Assembly: GCA_043228905.1 (NCBI GenBank)
Contig: JBHGNT010000352.1
Coordinates: 1-32,244 of the forward strand
Origin: Azolla caroliniana
Lineage: Eukaryota > Plantae > Polypodiophyta
Direction: 5' to 3'
DNA: 32,244 bases
How positions within the stretch are numbered: position 1 is the first letter of the stretch; each line of letters starts with the position of its first letter. Shown here piece after piece: positions 5,694 to 32,244 of this stretch. The notes below the pieces were generated by a model. It saw only the letters and a program-made list of their open reading frames with translations, did not search any database and was not told the DNA's origin. The position numbers and the translations under genes are program-made.

Positions 5694-6343
5694 ATGAGAT
5701 CTCATGATCATTTTATAGCTTCTTGGGGGCACCATGTTAGATAAAAATCGTAGTGCTACTTTTAACATGCACCTAAGCTTATGTTGGCATGGACGCATGA
5801 TGCTAGCTAAATCCTTGTTGGCATGGTGTTATTTACCACTTCATTTTCATTAGTTATGAGTTGTAGCTTACCTTTCTCCTCTATCACCTCGTGTAAGGTT
5901 TGGACCCTTGACCTCATTGTTCAGGTGTTTGGCTTTAGCATCTTAATTTTCACTTTCGTACTTTTTTTTCCAATGTTCACTTCAATGAGATTCATGACCT
6001 ATTGTAACTTGCCATTTAGGTGTGTTACTCCCTTCGCGTCTGCCACAATATGACACCATGCACAAACCTAGAGGTGGTTCTCAAGAAGAATAGTGAGTCA
6101 AAAGTAACTTTTAGTAAGAACATTGAGAGTCACTACAAGCCTATCTAATAGGGGCTGACACAATCCATGAGATATATTTTCTTGCAACTCTTCACATTAT
6201 AAGAAACTATAGGATACCAAATGTGTTGATGCTCTGATTGACTATATAAAGCACTCTTCTCCTGCTTTGTAATATGTTGGTTAATCTCCTTTGTAATATA
6301 CAATCTTCTTGAGTATTTTCTATTATCGATCTTGTGTCTCTCT

Positions 6344-8582: not shown

Positions 8583-9222
8583 TGGTATCAGAGCGAGAGG
8601 GTTGAAGTCCTCTGCAGCCGACAAGAAATGCTTGCGACAAAACAGAGTTGAAGTTGTCCTTCGTTTTTTTTTTCCGAAAAAGAAAAAGATAGCAATATGG
8701 ACAGAGGTATGGGAAGCTCGCTACCGACTGAAAAGCTCGACAGGAGCAACTACACATCTTGGTCGTACAAGATGCACCAATACTTGCTCGGTCACGGCTA
8801 CTAGAGTTATGTCGAAGGAGCTAATGATACAGCACCTTATTCGACACACAGAGATTTTTCGGCTTGTGAACAAGCGGCAAGCAGAGTTCTCTACTGCTTT
8901 GCATCCTGTGTGAGCGACCAGCTATTGAGCTATATTCGGGATGCTAAGACGCCAAAGGACGCGTGGGCGAATCTCAAAAAGATTTTCACCGCAAGCACAA
9001 CGGCCAGGAAGTTGCAGCTCAGGCAAGAGCTCAGCAATGTCCGGTGTCGTGAAGTACGAAAGCTTCACATTAAAAGTCTACAAAAAGATAAATATGTAAA
9101 TAAAATATAACTTGATAATGTTTTATAAAGGTAATATTAACAACACACACTATGATAATATTATATATTATATGTAGAGGCAGATAAAAATACATATATG
9201 TTATATTACATGGACGAGAGAG

Positions 9223-9276
9223 GACTTGAGACAATAAACCCCACCTTATGACACTAAAACCTTACCATTTAGCCTA
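9223..9276 (-). promoter_or_regulatory. tRNA-like Pol III type-2 promoter cassette, copy 1 in LTR E (degenerate B box)
   Basis: Minus strand: TAGGCTAAATGG, 32 nt, GTCTCAAGTC. Confidence 0.5.
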
Positions 9277-9391
9277 TACTAATAATTTACAAGAGATCAT
9301 ATGTGTTGTTTTATTTGAAGTAGTATTTTATAGTCTAAACCATGTAATATACTACATGCACACCATATAGCATATCACATGGGCAAAGGAG

Positions 9392-9445
9392 GACTTGAAC
9401 CAACAACCCCAACCTTATGGCATACAAATCTTACCATTTAACCTA
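9392..9445 (-). promoter_or_regulatory. tRNA-like Pol III type-2 promoter cassette, copy 2 in LTR E
   Basis: Minus strand: TAGGTTAAATGG, 32 nt, GGTTCAAGTC(C). Confidence 0.65.
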
Positions 9446-12400
9446 TACTTGTGATGTATATAAAACATATGTGTTGTATTATTATATGGTTTAAATGATG
9501 AAATGTACTACAGGTGCACCATACAACACGCATGCAAGAGCCTCTCTGCATGTGCACCATATAGCACACATGCAAGAGCCTCTCTGCATGTGAGCCACAT
9601 GGCCCACATGTAGAACCATCTCTTCCCTATAAAAGGAGAAGGGAGTATGGTCACAAGGGATATCGAAGGAATCAAAATCAAAGAACTATATTGTATGATA
9701 TATCAATAAATAAATAAAGAATTATATTAGATAAGAGATATCATAAGATAGAAAAAGGAAGACAATAAAAGAAAAGAACTAGTTTGACGGTCGTGGTGCT
9801 CAACTCACTACAAAAAGGGCGGAGGTTCAAGTCTCACCATCATCAAAAGCTAAAAGGGAAGATTGTGATCTACCCTCAAGAATGAGAAGAGCAGTTGCCT
9901 TGTGAGACAAAGTTCGAAGGATCAATGATGTTCACAACCATTTTGAAACTCTTTCATCAAATAATTATAAATCTCTTTTATCCTTTCAAATATCATTCTA
10001 TATCTTATCTTGTTGATCTCTATTTACTCTATCTCTACTCTTTCGTCTCTTCCGTCCATAATCCCAGTGATTCTTTCCTCACTTTCACGTTATCTTTTGT
10101 CTGTGCAACGTTATGCTTCTGGACGAGCCACGCCACGACACCGGCAGAAAGATCTATCTGTGGCTGATTACACAACCCGAATCAAGGAAATCTGCGATTC
10201 TCTTGCCTCTGTCAACGTGAATGTTGAGGACGATGAAATGGTGCAAGTTTGCCTTGGTGGGCTAGCGTCTAGGTTCAGAGTCTTCCGAACGGCGGTCTGT
10301 ACGAGGGAGAATACGCCTTCATTCTTCAAGCTTCAGTCAATTTTTCTCGTGGAGGAAAATCACGCGGGTGCGTCGACGAGTGAGCACACCAACGGCAAGA
10401 TGTTGTACACGGAGGAAGATAGGCCCCGTGGTTGTGGTGAACGAGGCGGATCGGCGCGCAATGGAGGCAGCCGACAAGAGTAGAATAACGCGGCATAATT
10501 GAAATGCCGACAGCAGTTTCGGACCCTCCACAAGTAGGGGGAGTCATGGCGGCGCTGGAAGGCGGCAAGTGAAGGCCGTGTTGGAATGTTGGTATTGTGG
10601 CAAGAAAGGCCACAATGAGAACGACTGCTGGAAAAAGAGAGCCGATTCGGACAAAGCCGGATCGAGCCGAAGAGACGTAGAGAGGCGTCAGAGATCGCAC
10701 TACGTAGAATACTCTGAACGAGCTCAAAACAAATAGGGCCCAACCTTCGTAATGAAGCATAAGGCCAATTCTATGGTCTTGACCACCTCGAAATCAAGCG
10801 AGGTGTGGTATGTTAATTCCGGAGCGTCAAATCATATGACGAGTCACGAGGAATGGTTCTCGTACTTGGAGAAACCGGAATCGCAAGGAGTGGTCGAAAT
10901 GGGAGACAACACTCTGCATACCATTGAACATGTCGGCAAAGTTCCCCTCAGCCATATCAGGCAAAAAGGGAAACTCGTGAACATGTTGCACGTCCTGACA
11001 ATAACGAAGAACCTGGTGTCGGTCGGTCAGATCATCGACTAGGGAATGCAGGTTCGATTCACGCATCTCGGGTGCTTCATAGAAGAGGAAGGCAAGATAA
11101 TCAAGCAAGGGTGTCGTGAAGGGAGGATGTTTATCCTCGAAACCAACAATGTGGGCATCGCTATGTTTGCGAAAGGGCAGAAGATCTAGTCGGACATCGA
11201 CTTGTGGCATAAGCGGTTCAGCCACGTAAATTACCCACTGCTTCATGAAATGAAGACAAAGAACATTGTTTTCAGCTTGCTGAAATTTCGGGGCCATGAT
11301 AGCCAAGTCTGTGAAGCCTATCAGATGGGTAAACAACACTGATTTCCATTCCCCAACGAGCGTAATCGGAGCCATAATCTGCTCGACTTGATCCATTCGG
11401 ATGTGTGGGGACTGGCACAAAACGCGAGTCTCGGTGGAAGCCGTTACTTTGTAACCTTCATCGATGACTTCACTCGGCACATGTGGGTATGCACGATCGC
11501 GAAGAAGAGCGAAGTCTTCGCATGTTTCCTGAAGGTGAAGAGCCTTGTGGAAAGGGAAACAGGGCGTAAGATCAAATGCCTACGGTCAGATTGGTAGGAA
11601 GGAGTACTTCTCCGACCAGTTCACAAGTTATCTACAGAAGGACGGAATTCGACGCGAATTCTCGTGTTTTTACACGCCGTAGCAGAACGGCATGGCCGAG
11701 CGGAAGAATCGGACAATTGAAGAAGCAGCGAGAGCAACGCTTGAAGAGAAGCATATGCCGAAATTCTATTGGGCTGAAGCAGTGAGGATGGCTGTCTACC
11801 TGCAGAATCAGACTTCTGTGAATGGAGCAGTGCCGAGTTAGATCGGAGTGAGTCTGACTATGGGCAAACTGAAAAGGAACCTCCACGGAAGAGGTCGACA
11901 GTAGCTGAAAAGGTCGTGAAATCGGGTAATCACGAATTACACCGATCTACCCGCCTCAAGAACCCCGTAAAGAGATACAGGTATAATGAGTACATGGCGC
12001 ACCATTACGCGTACATGATGCGAGTGGCGGAAGTGCGTGAGCCGGAGAGCTACACAGAAGCAGCGAAAGACATGAACTGTCGTGCCGCGATGGAGGAAGA
12101 GATGCGCACTTTGACTGATAATGAGACTTGGCACCTGGTTGACGCACCGAAGGATGTAAAGAAGATCGGATGTAGGTCGGTGTATAAAGTGAAATACAAT
12201 ACCAACAGCTGATTCAATCGATACAAGGCTCGCTTAGTGGCGAAAGGCTACATGCAGAAGCACGACGTGGACTACGATGAGACCTTCGCGCTTGTTGCGA
12301 AGATGACTACCGTGCGGGTTCTGCTAGTTGTAGCTGCAACAAAGGGGTGGCACTTACATCAAATGGATGTAAAGTACGCGTTCCTACAAGGTGATCTTGA

Positions 12401-16916: not shown

Positions 16917-17705
16917 TGATGGGAACTGCAACGTTCCTTATGCGCAACGCTCGGCCACAACCGAGCTTAGAATGATACACAGAAAACGGGAAATAAAACA
17001 CAACACAAAGAGGAGACAAGGTACACAGGAGGTTTACGTGGAAAACCCCAAACGAGGGGAAAAACCACGGCAGCCCACAAGCTGCAAACTATCACTATGA
17101 TGAAATGTACAACACTGAGTTCACTGAGGCACCGACCTCCTGCTCACAGATCTTCGCCACAGCCGGCGGTTACAATAGAGGCAGCGACCTCTTTCTCTCT
17201 CTCTCTCTCTGTACAGTTACGCACACTCTCAATTCTTGCACCAACAAGAATGACAAACAACTACTCACTAAAAGTTTGCCCTAAGTCATATTTATACTAA
17301 TATGACTTTTCGGCTATTTACAAATGTAGCCTCGATGGGCTCTCAGAAACATATTTACGAATATGTCTCTTCCTCCGGTTCGCACCGGGTCTGCGTCATT
17401 CGGCTCTCCGTAGTCGGGTGCTCCTCATCCGGTTCTCACTGGTTCTGCACCATCCGGCTCTCCGTAGCCGGGTACTCCTCATCCGGTTTGCACCGGGCCT
17501 GCACCATCCGGCTCTCCGTAGCCGGGTACTCCTCATCCGGTTCCCACCGGGCCTGCACCATCCGGCTCTCCGTAGCCGGGTACTCCTCATCCAGTTCACA
17601 CCGGGCCTGCACCATCCAGCTCTCCGTAGCCGGGTACTCCTCATCTAGTTTCGTCCGAGGCACTGTTCTTCTCCCTTCCCATCTAGAGGGACCTGTCTCC
17701 CAACA
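16917..17705 (-). repeat. 3' LTR of copia C (789 bp)
   Basis: 7/8 terminal IR, adjacent PPT, TATAAA on the minus strand at 17296-17291. Confidence 0.88.
17371..17650. repeat. 54-bp tandem repeat (5 units plus a partial) in U3 of LTR C
   Basis: Unit tcatccggtttgcaccgggcctgcaccatccggctctccgtagccgggtactcc; it produces the 18-aa repeats seen in the ORF track. Confidence 0.95.
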
Positions 17706-25262: not shown

Positions 25263-25933
25263 TGTCGCGCCTTTCGGCGCCGGATTGTTTCATGAGTCGG
25301 GTGGGAACCGCTAGGGTTTTGGACTAAGAGGAAGAAGAATTTGAGACTAATTAGAATATAAATAGGTTGTAGGAAAGAGATATAGAAACCTCGTGAATCT
25401 CACGAGTGTATTGCATTAGATTAATCAATATTAAGATAATATGAATGTAGATAGAAAGAGAAGAATATAGAAACCTCGTGAATCCCACGGGTATAGTTTA
25501 TTTCGTGAATCCCACGAATATAATTAATTGGTGTTTTTTTAGAAATATATCCAATTTCCAAATATTTCACACCCCCTATTACATTGTGCTCCCCATCCTT
25601 ATATAGTGATGAGAGAGTCTTAGCACTCCATGCTTTTTCTGTAATTATCAACTTTATGCTTTTTCTATCAATAGACTATATGCTTTATCTAACATGCTTT
25701 TTCTAACTTGATGCGTTTTTATCGACTATAGTGTTCATGCACGCTAGATGTGCATGTGTAGCTTTTTCTTTTATCATGCATTTTCTTCTAACTAAAGTTT
25801 ATCCTAGTGTGCACTTACCTTTCTATGTGGGACGTCTACTTTTTCAACATTAATGATATGTTAGTGTAATGGTAAAGCTTCACATTATGTACATGGAGGT
25901 ACAAGGTTTGAATCTTGCCCTATGCATGTAACA
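25263..25933 (-). mobile_element. Solo LTR D (671 bp)
   Basis: Minus strand TGTTACA...CGCGACA (IR mismatches are all CpG-type transitions); near-TSD acat/atat; TATATAA on the minus strand at 25605-25599; internal cgtgaatcccacg repeats. Confidence 0.7.
25862..25914 (+). promoter_or_regulatory. tRNA-like Pol III type-2 promoter cassette in U3 of LTR D
   Basis: TAGTGTAATGG, 32 nt, GGTTTGAATC (GGTTCGAATC with CpG decay); T5 run at 25937-25941 just outside the LTR. Confidence 0.6.
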
Positions 25934-25953: not shown

Positions 25954-26128
25954 TATTTGCAAATATGTCTCTTCATCCGGTTCTCACCAGGTCTTCTTTA
26001 TCCGGTTCTTACTGGGTCCTCCTTACCGGGTCCTCTTCGTCTATTTCTCACCGGCCTTCTTCATCCGGTTCTCATCGGGTACTCTTCATCCGGTTCTTGC
26101 CGGGCCTCCATGCCCATCCGGAGGGACC
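25954..26128 (-). mobile_element. U3 fragment of a copia LTR related to LTR C, with a ~25-bp tandem array
   Basis: Shares aatatgtctcttc.tccggttc and cccatc..gagggacc anchors with 17360-17693; unit tcttcatccggttctcaccgggtc. Confidence 0.7.
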
Positions 26129-26650: not shown

Positions 26651-28153
26651 ATTATCGTCTTTGGAGGTCAAATATGACCTATGAGACCAAGAATATTACA
26701 TTTCACGTGATACGTGTGAAGGTGAGTAACGACTCTCGATGTTCAAGAACTTTACCAATGAATATTGCAATCGAGAGTGCACATCATGGTTGTGAGAGAA
26801 ATTCGTGCAGGGATTGGGCTTGATCGAAGAGATGTGGAAAGCATGGTCGAATATGATCAAAGGCAGAGCATTGTATCAAAGTGTGATACTCAGACTCTCG
26901 AACTTGTTTAGGGAAAAGTGTGCATAGTTAGCCACTCTCATCACTTGTGCCCCAACGCCCCGTCTCACGTCTCAATGCGTGCGAGCTAAGTCGCATGGAA
27001 GCAATGGTTCAAATGGCAGATATCGGGACGGGTAACATGTATCGATGTGTACGGCTTCCCTGTTTCGCGAAGAATATGGTTTTGAAGTTAAGTGCAACAT
27101 CTGTAGTATAATGTGTGAAGCGTGAGCCACCACATTTGTCCCATGTCGTGATACATTGGCATTGCAAAAAGGCCTCATTTACAGAGGGATCTAGTGACGC
27201 ATCATGAAGTAAGTGTCTTGCATCCTATCTACCAAACCATTTTTCTAAATCTTGCATCCAACTTGAATACAAAATTTTGCTTTTATGCGTCTTTTGGATC
27301 CTTTTGCTTGCTTCCCATGCAATTCTAGGAAGTCGATGTGAGGGGCTTTTTTGAACCTTAAGCACGTATTCAACAACCCTTTCCATGGACATGATCTCAA
27401 TGGGAAGCGATCTTGTCTCAAGGAGGAGGAGGGTGTAGGGTGTTTGTTTCTTAACTTGTAGAAACTTTGTAAGAAAATGTTTTTGGACATTTTCAAACTC
27501 TTTCCACGTAGATTTAGGGATGCTACCGCCCCATACTTCCACCCCATAGAGAAGAACCAGGGTCACCAAAGTGTCAAAAAGATATTTCTTGAGGACCCAA
27601 CACTTAATATCTCCAAGATTGCATGTGTTCTCAAATGCATAATATGCTCGCTTACCCACCTCTAAGCGGCATGTAGCACATTCATTCCATTTATGATTTG
27701 AAGGAATTTCAAGGCCAAGATATTTGAAGCTTTCCACACATTCAAGTGGCTCATTGTTGTACATAATGCATGGTTTATCTCTTTTTTGACTCTTCACAAG
27801 CATAATCTTTGTTTTAGAGCAATTGACACTTAATTTAGTATGCATGAATTTTTTTTCCAATGCCTTCATAAGCTTTTGTGCATCTCCTGAAGTATTTGCA
27901 AAAAGCACTACATCATTCGCATATAACAAAAGCATAATCACAACATTCCCAATGACAACTTCTTCAACACATTCTTCCTTTACAAACTTGGTAACCATTT
28001 CTTCTAATTCATCAATGCATAAACCAAATAATGTTGGTGAGAGTGGACATCCTTGCTTAACACCAATAGTGCTATTGAAAAAATCTGAAAGTCTATCTCT
28101 CATACGCACACAACATATAACCTTCTCATATATTCGGGAAATTGCAAGCATAT
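26647..28153 (-). mobile_element. Non-LTR retrotransposon (LINE) ORF2 3' half: RT plus C-terminal Cys/His finger; non-L1, RTEX/L2-group-like
   Basis: GVKQGCPLSPTLF, LLLYANDVVLF (YADD mutated), FKYLG, LLYGVEVWG, RLSSHALRRETGRW..CTLF..ESEYHTLIQC; stop at 26703, short 3' UTR. Cut at 28153 by gypsy F. Confidence 0.9.
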
Positions 28154-28606
28154 TGTCATAATATGGCAAGACTTGAACCCATGACCTTATGCTACATGGG
28201 TTGAGCTCTTACCATTAGACTATGTATTGTAATACAAAAGATATTATTTTCATTTAAGTTTTATTATAGGAAACTGATGTATATTCTAGAGTTCTCTAGA
28301 ATATTCTAGAAACTTCAAGAGTACTCCTGACAACACTATAAAAGGAGGCACAAGGCATTATTTCGAACCAAATTGGTTCAACGCTAGTCTTTAGCCTCAT
28401 AGCCCTTTGTACTTACTTTTCCTATAATATATAATCTGTTATCATCATCTCTCTCTCTCTCTCTCTCTCGTCCTCGCTCTCTCTCTCTCTCTCTCCTCTT
28501 CTCTCTTCCTCTCTCGGGAGTCTTACGCAGTCCCGTCCTCTTGGTACTAATAGTACTACCCTTCTCTAGTACTAATTCTCTCTTTGTTTTAGTACTATTC
28601 CTGATA
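28154..28606 (+). repeat. 5' LTR of gypsy F (453 bp)
   Basis: TGTCA...TGATA (TGACA with C>T); TATAAAA at 28337-28343; (CT)n tract; followed by a self-priming PBS. Confidence 0.75.
28170..28222 (-). promoter_or_regulatory. tRNA-like Pol III type-2 promoter cassette in U3 of LTR F
   Basis: Minus strand: TAGTCTAATGG, 32 nt, GGTTCAAGTC. Confidence 0.65.
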
Positions 28607-28608
28607 GT

Positions 28609-28620
28609 TTGAACCGATTT
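28609..28620 (+). promoter_or_regulatory. Self-priming PBS of gypsy F
   Basis: TTGAACCGATTT is complementary (one G-U pair) to AAATTGGTTCAA at 28370-28381, which starts 33 nt after the start of the TATA box. Confidence 0.75.
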
Positions 28621-28675: not shown

Positions 28676-29814
28676 ATGGCCATTGTTAGTGCTCAAGAAT
28701 ATCAATCTGTTTTCTTGGAGTTTCAATGCTTGAAAGAGAGGTTCCTTGCTTTGGAACAAGAAAATCAACGGTTGTTGGGGGATCTTCAACAAATCTCCTT
28801 AGAAAAGTAGCAAACGCAACAACAACATGGGGAACTTGCGTTACGCGTGCAACAACTCGAAGCAACCATCGTAGCGATGCAACAACAAGGACTCGGAACA
28901 CAAGGGATTCATAAAGAACCCAAGATTGGCCTTCCCACGAAGTTCTATGGAACACGATCGTAGTGTAGAGGGTTCCTTAACCAGGTAGGATTAGTTATTC
29001 AAATGCATCCTTCCCGATATCCCACCAATGCATCACAAGTGGGTTTAGTAGGCACATTGTTAAGTGGCTCAGCATTGGCATGGTTCGCTCCATTGTTAGA
29101 AAAGGAATCTCCATTACTCAACAATTTTGAAGAGTTTATAGGTGAGTTTAAGGCATGTTTTGGAGATACTGACAACATAAGGATTGCAATCAACAAAATC
29201 CGGCGATTACGACAAGGTGACCGTCCAGCCTCTGCATACACTGCAGATTTCCGCCTACTTGCCACCGATATCCCTTGGGATGATCAAGCGTTGATGGAGC
29301 AATTTCGTTATGGCTTACGCAACGATGTCAAGGATTTACTCTTGACCTTCCCCGAAGAGCCAAAGTCCTTAATAGAAGCAATCAGTCGCGCGGTGAGATG
29401 TTACAACCGCCTCTTTGAGCAATGTTCGGAACGACAACTACAGATGCCAAGGGCAAGATTAGAGCCCACCTACGCCTCAGTGGTAGCAAAACCTTTTCCG
29501 AGGGAGTCATATAATGTGCCTCCAGTGAATACTCCGACTCCGATGGAGAATACTCCGACTCCGATGGAGCAAATCGACTATGTCTTTATTGTGGTGGTCC
29601 AGGGCATATTGCAGTAAATTGTCCCCATAGGTGAAGGAGACAAGTAAACCAAATAGTTGCTAGTACTAATTGTACTAAACCCAAGTCTGTTTCAGTAGGG
29701 ATATCTGATAGTCGTCATAGTCCTAATAGTACTAATAGCCCAAATCTAGCAAACAAATCTAATGTCCTTAGTCAATTAGAAGAAGAGTTAAATGACTAAG
29801 TCCAGCCAAAATAG
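28676..29814 (+). pseudogene. gag: Gypsy F gag (stops, internal deletion and frameshift)
   Basis: MAIVSAQEYQ..KEPKIGLP.KF.GTRS..LLSGSALAWF..LRQG..Y..DF..FRYGL..CLYCGGPGHIAVNC knuckle. Confidence 0.9.
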
Positions 29815-29838
29815 GAGCCGTTTGGTTGGACAACCCTA
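29787..29838 (+). promoter_or_regulatory. Putative -1 ribosomal frameshift signal at the gag-pol junction
   Basis: G TTA AAT heptamer, 6-nt spacer, 11-bp stem 29800-29810/29821-29831; loop TAGG can pair with CCTA at 29835-29838; pol is in the -1 frame. Confidence 0.65.
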
Positions 29839-32244
29839 GATATGTTCAGCCCATTAGTGGTTCCATTCCCTCTAAGCAAGTTAGCAATGTGTTCATAGCC
29901 CAAGTAGCAGTTAGTACTAAAAGTACCCCTCCAGTACATGTTCTAGCACTTCTAGATTCTGGAGCTAATTCTTGCTTCATGGATAGGAAATTTGCCCAAG
30001 ATCATCAGATATCTCTCAGAAAACTCCCATGTCCTGCCTCTGTAGTAGTCATTGATGGTTGTCCCATTGCTTCCGGAAATATCATAGAAGAGTCAAAGCC
30101 CATTAATATTTTCCTAGATAATCTAGCATGTGTCATATCATTTAATATAATTAGCATCCCAGAACACCCCATTGTCTTAGGATTACCATGGTTCGAATTA
30201 CATAACCCAGACATAGATTGGCGGACAAGAGAAATCCAGCATCGAAAAGCCCGAGGGTCTACTCATGAGATTGCAACGATTTCACTACATTAGTTACGTG
30301 AGGAAGGACACAAGGAAGAAATGTTCCTCTTCGCAACATCAGTAAAACCCTTCAACACCATTAAAGAGGAATCCACCATTCAACTTCCAGAGAAGTATCG
30401 TCATTATGCCGATGTGTTTGATAAAGTACAAGCCAATACGCTTCCTCACCATCGACCATATGATTGCTCCATCGATTTACAACCGGGGAAAGAGCCACCA
30501 TGGGGACCGATCTACAATCTGTCACCAACCGGACTAGAAGTCCTTCGAGCCTATATAGAGGAGAATTTGGAGAATGGTTTCATACGACATTCGAAATCTC
30601 CAGCCGACGCACCCATTTTCTTCGTCAAGAAAAAGGATGGCTCACTTTGTCTCGTTGTAGATTACCGTGGCTTGAATAAGGTTACAATCCGAAATAGGTA
30701 TGCACTTCCCCTTATCTCAAGTCTTGCCTATAACCTCGTACGGATCCGACCAGGACATGAATGGAAGACCGCGTTCCGCACCAGATATGGGCACTTCAAG
30801 TATACGGTCATGCCGTTCGGCCTCACTAATGCGCCAACAGTCTTCCATCACATGGCAAATGATATTTTCCAAGATCTCTTGGATGTGTGTCTAATCATCT
30901 ATTTGGATGATCTACTAGTTTACTCAAAGACCCAAGAAGAGCATGATTCTCATGTACTATTAGTACTAAAACGACTTCGAGAACATGGTCTTTATGCAAA
31001 GCTGGAAAAATGTACTTTCGGGTGCAGCCAAGTGGAATTTCTCGGCTATGTCATTTCCTCAGAAGGCATCTCCATGGACCCAGCTAAGGTCCAAATGGTG
31101 GTAGAATGGCAGACTCCGCGTTCGGTGCGAGATGTGCAATGCTTTCTAGGCTTTGCCAATTTTTACCGGAAGTTTATAAAGGATTACTCAAAGCTCGTTT
31201 TGCCTTTTACACAACTTACTAGGAAGGGACAATCGTTCATTTGGTCTGAAGAAGCGGACATGGCTTTTGAGAATCTTAAAAAGGCATTTACATCAGCTCC
31301 GATTCTAGCTCACGTTGATCCAGAAAAACCATTCATCATCAAAGCGGACGCATCGGATTTTGCATTGGGGAGCATTCTATCACAATGAGGTAATGATGAA
31401 AAGCTACATCCTGTGGCTTTTCACTCACGTAAGTTTGACGCCGCCGAAATCAACTACGAAATTCATGAGAAAGAGCTATTGGCTATAGTGGACTCTTTTA
31501 TGCAATGGAGGCATAAAAGAGTCCACTATAGCCAATAGCTCTTCTCATCAAGTCAGTGTATTCAGTGACCACAAAAACCTCGCCTATTTTCAAGACGCTC
31601 GCGTGTTAAATCGACATCAAGCTCAGTGGGCCCATTTTCTCACGCGTTTCGACTTCAAGATTACATATCGACCTGGGAAGCACCAAGGGAAAGCAGATGC
31701 ATTATCACGACGTTCGTACCTAGCACCGCGTCCCGGCGAGCCAGCTTTCGATAACCAAAAGCAAGTAATCTTGGGACCGGCACGATTGCAAGCAACACAG
31801 GTCTTTGGCATGCCCATGGATTCCCACGTTATCAATATCATACGTGCGGACCTGAAGACAGATGCTTTCGCCCAAGCTATACTAGCACAAATTGATCCCT
31901 CTCGAGTGTCGTGTTCACAGTCGCAACCACCAGGTACAGACTATCGGCAATTCAAATACCATGATGGATTACTCTTCTTTAAAGAACTTTTGTATGTTCC
32001 TAATGGTTCTTGCTGCCTTCGAGTAGTACAAAACTGTCATGATACATATACAGCTGGGCATTTTGGTAGTACTAAAACATTAGATTTAGTACAACGATCA
32101 TTCTGGTGGCCCCGTATGCGACAATTTGTCGAAGATTTTGTTCGGACTTGTGATACATGCTGCAGAGCGAAAATGCCAAGGCATCATCCATATGGTTTAT
32201 TAGAACCATTGCCAATTCCAAGCAAGCCGTGGCAATCCATTGCT
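29826..32244 (+). pseudogene. pol: Gypsy F pol: protease, RT, RNase H, integrase HHCC (stops, deletion, inverted duplication)
   Basis: LLDSGANSCF; MPFGLTNAP; IYLDDLL; ADASDFALG; HDTYTAGHFG..FWWP..CDTC. Confidence 0.93.

Follow-up and report, generated by a model that had tools for sequence, protein, structure and literature searches.

The window analysed here, the whole stretch of 32,244 nucleotides, consists of nested eukaryotic retrotransposon DNA. It contains three LTRs that we call D, E, and F, and their features are collected in Table 1. LTR F is followed by a gag-pol element of which it is the 5′ LTR, so F as a solo LTR is ruled out, and F as a TRIM is likewise ruled out because the element is protein-coding and self-priming. 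The F LTR is 453 bp long (other copies end in TGACA, at place 28605), and its empty site is found in public sequencing runs, where contigs of the uninterrupted LINE reach 28153 and carry on. The window stops before the F element does. The close relative L010, with 83% pol identity to F across the compared part, keeps gag and pol open and has RT, RNase H, integrase, and a C-terminal Chromo domain.

In 20 of the 21 sites listed, the sequence to which the primer binding site (PBS) is complementary follows the TATA box at a distance of 32–35 nt; in L072 the distance is 55 nt. Across families, as judged from the window and 20 locus sites, the 5′ end of R and the PBS show clean compensatory change. 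From this match and covariation, we conclude that the orientation is fixed and that the element is self-priming. Self-priming is described as a mark of the Tcn1/Tf1 group (PMC6317226), and the authors of PMC2864245 found no evidence of this kind for SM-Tcn1. Judged by its domain order, the chromodomain of L010, and the self-priming PBS, F is a Tcn1-type chromovirus, and elements of this type have been reported from mosses, lycophytes, and ferns, which are non-seed plants (PMC6317226, PMC2864245). Going by the types of element present, the host is probably a non-seed plant. A comparison of the F RT with viral contigs found no relative. The RNase H region of F contains a near-perfect inverted repeat of about 80 nt (31467-31547), a local fold-back duplication whose matches to miRNA families are spurious and under the gathering score.

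LTRs D and E are without a coding part, and neither has a BLAST match among the 79 Gag-selected loci described below. E is inserted in a copia gag gene, where empty-site joints skip 1100 bases in four of four runs, and its CCGG target site duplication (TSD) fits the NCGN 4-bp target duplication of Phygy-like non-chromovirus gypsy elements, a motif that we take from PMC6317226. The flanks of D, ACAT/ATAT, are a probable decayed 4-bp TSD and match NCGN only if CpG decay is assumed. The orientation of F is firm on account of its gag, pol, and priming site, whereas for D and E only the TATA boxes indicate it. Just upstream of the E TATA box is a palindromic, duplicated stretch (9545-9614), and beside D lies a decayed copy (25954-26097) related to a 54-bp tandem repeat found at 17352-17651 in the 3′ region of a minus-strand copia element.

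Table 1. Positions of the LTRs, cassettes, and neighbouring features in the window
Feature	Positions	Strand	Remarks
Solo LTR E, 1096 bp	9045..10140	+	TSD CCGG; TATA box 9628-9634
E cassette 1, antisense, B box decayed	9223..9276	-	Within a 71%-identical tandem duplication
E cassette 2, antisense	9392..9445	-	25.0 bits
E cassette 3, sense	9780..9833	+	About 150 nt downstream of the E TATA box; 30.3 bits
Solo LTR D, 671 bp	25263..25933	-	TATA box 25605-25599
D cassette	25862..25914	+	A box 25862-25872, B box 25905-25914; antisense to D; 30.7 bits
LINE reverse transcriptase gene hit by F	27225..28153	-	Pfam RVT_1, empty-site contigs
LTR F, 5′ LTR of Tcn1-type chromovirus (Ty3/gypsy)	28154..28606	+	Inserted in the LINE RT gene
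F cassette B box	28170..28179	-	0 mismatches, 16 nt from LTR 5′ terminus
F AGGTC, exactly tRNA positions 44-48 (variable loop)	28183..28187	-	
F cassette A box	28212..28222	-	0 mismatches
TATAA, possible Pol III (TFIIIB) TATA	28264..28268	-	Suggestive only; A+T-rich surroundings, -39 relative to tRNA position 1
Heat-shock-element-like GAA/TTC array	28284..28316	+	Cassette-TATA interval; core match 28299-28311
Pol II TATA box of F	28337..28344	+	
5′ end of R, complementary to PBS	28372..28382	+	Self-priming
Self-priming PBS, not tRNA-complementary	28607..28619	+	Covaries with R among families
Decayed gag, protease, RT/RNase H, and part of integrase of F	28964..32244	+	Pfam; runs off the window

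Cassettes in the three LTRs

The original prediction was that the three LTRs, of 453, 671, and 1096 bp, carry four antisense cassettes with the A and B boxes of a tRNA-type Pol III promoter. All four are found where they had been placed, the LTR lengths are confirmed, and the B box does lie 16 nt (F) and 19 nt (D) from the LTR 5′ end. For matching within the window, we used a generic motif, TRGYNNARTGG/GGTTCRANYC, that consists of textbook boxes and is not fitted to these copies. The F cassette matches it with 0 mismatches and an A-to-B spacing of 32 nt, and the D cassette has the same 32-nt spacing and a B box with one mismatch (GGTTTGAATC). In E, both antisense copies (9445-9392 and 9276-9223) have an A box in a 12-nt variant form, and within the window the second of them has a decayed B box. 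The four cassettes are antisense to the TATA box and upstream of it as proposed, but a fifth had been missed, which lies in E in the sense direction and downstream of the TATA box (other copies of it carry the canonical G at 9829). Thus, four of the five cassettes in the window are antisense to their own LTR and one is sense, and because the sense one is downstream of its TATA box, all five face away from a Pol II TATA box.

Such a set is not expected by chance. With at most one mismatch, three cassettes are observed in the window against a mean of 0.003 in 300 block-wise dinucleotide shuffles, and with at most two mismatches there are four against a mean of 0.187; none of the 300 shuffles reached the observed count. 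We also scored the window with a matrix made from 17 cassettes outside it, using a listing threshold of 13 bits. F scores 42.9 bits, D 30.7, E cassette 3 30.3, and E cassette 2 25.0, while E cassette 1 (9276-9223) falls under the threshold, and the top score in 30 shuffled windows is 18.7 bits. A possible sixth, decayed cassette on the minus strand (5890-5948), with a good variable loop and B box and its A box lost, scores 16.8 bits, which is below the shuffle maximum; it sits in what is probably a minus-strand LTR, with its end near 5737.

Contigs from four runs, with four species labels, cover the F cassette, and contigs of four runs cover the E cassettes. Among the 15 joints listed of 91, one cuts the F cassette (28196-28280; one contig in each of two runs). 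LTRs D, E, and F are otherwise mutually unalike, as had been noted before, and D and F resemble each other at the cassette alone, with 75% over 65 nt (E 0.01). Within it, D shares the register of F: ATGTA occupies tRNA positions 34-38 and AGGT positions 44-47, so that a common donor is suggested; tRNA positions are given throughout in the textbook numbering. A search of the window for tRNAs, with Rfam at a relaxed E of up to 10 and with ARAGORN, came back empty. A search for the cassette pattern in viral contigs gave three matches, which look like chance.

The cassette among relatives of F

Relatives of F were chosen by Gag alignment alone, which gave 79 loci from the best 80 of 162 matches; near-copies are numerous among them, and contigs that the assembler collapsed may be chimeras. 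The antisense cassette, with at most two mismatches, is present in 31 of 54 U3 windows (53 loci and F, with F among the 31), and the same motif occurs on the sense strand in 0 of 54 and in shuffles in 0 of 162. Thirty-six of the 79 loci were set aside as missing the outer U3 owing to short contigs, truncations, or assembly jumps at a CT microsatellite. The other 43 were graded by inspection: 32 have a clear cassette, five have a degenerate one in register (L027, L037, L060, L079, and L082), two are unclear (L049 and L066), and in four it is absent despite a whole U3 (L065, L072, L078, and L080). These last four relatives indicate that the cassette is dispensable.

Where measured, the distance between the LTR terminus and the end of the B box is 11–65 nt, and that between the TATA box and the start of the A box is 111–207 nt, with a single value of 49 nt that refers to another TATA-like run. 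The order in U3 is terminus, B box, A box, A+T-rich tract, heat-shock-element-like array, TATA box, and R. Independent SINE insertion was considered and rejected, as no tail or TSD is seen by eye and the cassette is in the same place in 37 of the 43 outer U3s, which agrees with the original assignment of the cassette to LTR families. At the cassette, ARAGORN found no tRNA in 42 loci and Rfam found none in 8 loci.

Carriers fall in two clades that are about 59% identical over RT–RNase H–integrase, with cassette-less lineages between them. The tree is a quick version with a midpoint root and no named outgroups or references (40 of 50 rows kept, each of at least 300 aa), and its topology would fit one old gain with losses or two gains alike.

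Nearby tRNA genes at L025, L029, and L059 were checked as possible tRNA-gene targeting; L025 and L029, which have no LTR end at the tRNA-gene junction and look chimeric, were not counted. L025:1-6300 is a tandem array of decayed, intron-bearing tRNA-Tyr-like genes. One clade has a second antisense tRNA-like cassette, with 31-nt spacing, in frame within pol (L020:2944-3005, L025, L019, L021, L022, L024, L048, and L054). It is located in the protease–RT linker, about 1370–1420 nt past the gag match or at the permuted equivalent, and the complement of its B box encodes RTQ (frame checked in 4 loci). This pol-internal cassette looks like an independent capture.

Conserved positions and lost stems

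To compare cassettes across families, we used 18 that are less than 80% identical, dereplicated from 36. The spacing between their boxes is 32–33 nt, where 32 nt corresponds to tRNA positions 20-51. Mean pairwise identity is 0.66 in the A box and 0.77 in the B box, values that are partly circular because the cassettes were picked by motif, and it is 0.83 at positions 44-48. The AGGT at variable-loop positions 44-47, which lies outside the search motif, is kept at 89, 100, 94, and 94%. Elsewhere identity is about 0.33–0.40 overall (anticodon arm 0.37, acceptor halves 0.34–0.35, upstream flank 0.34–0.40), and the flanks of the cassette cannot be aligned across families. G45, G53, T8, and T54 are invariant. 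The B-box CpG at positions 56-57 reads CG in nine cassettes, CA in seven, TG in one, and TA in one, so that there are seven of the tolerated CA for one of the damaging TG, a ratio that is partly circular for the same reason as the box identities. Retention of the boxes, the spacing, and the variable-loop positions over families upholds the view that the cassette is tRNA-derived; ATG is found at positions 34-36 in 10 of the 18, and the isotype of the donor tRNA is not assignable.

The fold of a tRNA is not retained. The paired fraction is 0.60 in the D stem, 0.41 in the anticodon stem, and 0.62 in the T stem, against 0.61, 0.37, and 0.63 after shuffling of rows, and conserved RNA stems were rejected on this basis. 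Acceptor pairing is 0.47 vs 0.40 when shuffled (31 of 2000), which is inside the range of the slid control. A functional tRNA gene is ruled out as well, because there is no cloverleaf pairing and no ARAGORN or Rfam match. With the boxes and variable loop kept and the stems of the 18 cassettes at shuffle level, it is the promoter-type positions that persist and not the fold, just as the claim of kept boxes and a lost cloverleaf had it.

It had also been expected that the boxes would be more conserved than neighbouring U3, and this is borne out across families but not within the close group of F (10 LTRs, some of them decayed single copies), where the boxes are at 0.78–0.82 and the rest of U3 is at 0.79–0.83. 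In whole-U3 alignments, two other groups have a modest excess (0.85–0.91 vs 0.72–0.78 and 0.77–0.82 vs 0.61–0.74), and one further pair has none.

The 40 nt upstream of the cassettes are 79–82% A+T. A TATAW starts at -40..-29 in 10 of the 18 vs 4.5 in shuffles (5 of 1000), in a window chosen after the data were seen, and narrower windows give 7 of 18 at -37..-29 (55 of 1000) and 5 of 18 at -34..-29 (87 of 1000). In plant tRNA genes, the upstream TATA has been reported to peak at about -35 (PMC3082873).

Possible roles and comparison with known systems

Because the cassette faces outward, it cannot make genomic RNA, and because the clade self-primes, it is not needed for priming. In our view, selection for a promoter-like role at the level of DNA is the likely reason why the module persists. 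More specifically, and with a confidence that stops a little short of an even balance, we propose from its sequence that the cassette works as DNA, as a putative Pol III/TFIIIC platform that helps keep the LTR promoter open. In such a scheme, the A and B boxes would recruit TFIIIC, TFIIIB, and Pol III at the outer edge of U3, and this assembly, standing back to back with the Pol II promoter, would resist nucleosomes or spreading silencing, such that an open or barrier zone would arise between the flanking chromatin and the LTR promoter. The chromodomain would be expected to steer the elements into heterochromatin, where an open promoter would benefit Pol II transcription, and the outward orientation would spare the enhancer and TATA box from Pol III read-through.

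The fission yeast tDNA barrier is reported to need the A box, the TATA box, and Pol III, and not TFIIIC alone (PMC2040200), and these needed parts match the parts that are kept in the LTR cassettes. The same barrier works in either orientation (PMC2040200), and the strand bias would therefore not follow from a barrier role by itself. In Arabidopsis, clustered tDNAs are described as being themselves silenced by methylation (PMC7544208), and a literature search found no tDNA barrier in plants.

We regard it as unlikely that an antisense Pol III RNA is instead the selected product, regulating the element via small RNAs, for example. Such a product would be in line with the full promoter layout that is retained and with the 7 of the 18 cassettes where T4 follows the B box at no more than 45 nt, in six of them at no more than 20 nt, as in tRNA genes. 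However, 6 of the 18 lack T4 throughout the up to 400 nt read, the others have it at 56–226 nt, and thus neither a conserved Pol III terminator nor a conserved product length is found across the 18, and no fold is conserved either. Made from the 3′ LTR, this transcript would cross the polypurine tract into the end of pol.

The cassette could also be a neutral relic, a tRNA gene or SINE head that was captured once or a few times and has been hitchhiking in LTRs. The lack of excess box conservation in the F group, the five loci with decayed boxes, and the four without a cassette are what a relic would leave, but boxes, spacing, and AGGT survive amid flanks of background identity and lost stems, they persist across clades that are 59% identical in pol, and the cassette recurs in the unrelated LTRs D and E. 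Taken together, we find this explanation improbable.

We give a low probability to co-option for Pol II, where motifs such as TGACCT in the sense direction, or the A+T tract, would be enhancer or nucleosome-exclusion sites with no part for Pol III. Positions 44-47 are as invariant as the boxes, and heat-shock-element-like arrays, called by the GAA/TTC consensus, adjoin the cassette in 12 of the 18 U3s, both of which fit with co-option, but the retention of both boxes and of their spacing would be left unexplained. Five of the six U3s without such an array have a T4 run 12–20 nt past the B box, an observation confounded by relatedness.

There is small likelihood that integrases directed at Pol III genes use the cassette as a landing pad or are decoyed by it; Pol III-directed integration is known for yeast Ty1 (PMC12786077). 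No insertion lies upstream of any cassette in the window, the F U3 has no listed place where many contigs start or end, and no repeated breakpoint is seen by eye in the cassette loci, although with collapsed assemblies the test is a weak one.

Ty3 has a bipartite PBS. Annealing of U3 RNA, as the complement of tRNA D and T loops, to a host tRNA for strand transfer would predict the antisense orientation in U3 and has an HIV-1 U3-R precedent cited in PMC6468702, but it is very improbable. In the F clade PBS and R covary, which leaves the RNA with no tRNA primer, the unpaired stems mean that the stretch cannot match one real tRNA, and G45, G53, T8, and T54 are invariant though wobble would allow G>A and T>C. 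For the solo LTRs D and E, annealing may still apply.

A wider form of the proposed Pol III/TFIIIC platform, which is possible and somewhat more doubtful, is that these are self-insulating LTRs, in which autonomous retrotransposons of non-seed plants have their own putative tDNA-type barrier as a standing promoter module. If this is true, self-insulation would have been kept over deep chromovirus lineages and gained by unrelated gypsy LTRs too, the E promoter would be bracketed on both sides by cassettes, and the elements would counter silencing in cis with borrowed Pol III machinery. To the question of how LTR elements remain transcribable after landing in heterochromatin, a conserved and mutable 54-nt module beside the promoter would offer a testable answer, and a barrier role would also probe whether plants use tDNA barriers. 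Even without a barrier role, abundant LTR families would spread very many TFIIIC-type sites, with a bearing on chromatin organisation, tRNA pseudogene counts, and LTR annotation.

We conclude from the sequence comparisons that the cassette is a real, lineage-wide LTR module that extends the theme of small-RNA promoters in LTRs; its function is what we infer. Several known systems resemble it in part. The tRNA-Lys3-like sequence in HIV-1 U3-R is also a tRNA complement in an LTR, but it acts with the tRNA primer (PMC6468702), and the F clade uses none. The S. pombe cen1 tDNA barrier likewise requires an A box, a TATA box, and assembled Pol III, but it is a host tRNA gene that was tested in yeast (PMC2040200), whereas the LTR cassettes are known from sequence. 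Tcn1 clade chromoviruses share the chromodomain, self-priming PBS, and gag-pol order (PMC2864245, PMC6317226), and the available text of these two papers does not mention an LTR tRNA or Pol III cassette for the clade. More broadly, a full-text search that took in few subscription papers, with the Repbase notes outside it, found no description of an antisense tRNA-type cassette in autonomous plant LTRs.

Cassandra TRIMs, with which the cassettes had originally been compared, do have a Pol III promoter in a plant LTR, but theirs is 5S-derived and drives the element's own RNA, and the elements are non-autonomous (PMC10886601, PMC12786077). Helenus/TRIMp3, although also non-autonomous, is closer in that its LTR sequence is tRNA-derived; boxes A and B are the centre of conservation there, and a functional tRNA is mostly absent (PMC10886601). 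In the same report, "not a few LTRs" in Repbase are said to resemble part of a tRNA, with only TRIMs analysed (Kojima 2024, PMC10886601), and its supplements may list tRNA-like autonomous LTRs. Helenus elements are described as non-autonomous, 311–1263 bp long, tRNA-primed, and thought to be transcribed from their Pol III promoter (PMC10886601), whereas the F element is gag-pol coding and self-primed, with a Pol II TATA box and an outward cassette. The longest Helenus LTR given is 323 bp (PMC10886601), compared with 671 bp for D and 1096 bp for E. A Pol III promoter placed to transcribe the element is a Helenus trait that is not seen here, where only E cassette 3 is sense, and the available text of PMC10886601 does not state the Helenus orientation outright. 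Helenus is thus the closest known kind, and autonomy, self-priming, and an outward promoter set the present case apart.
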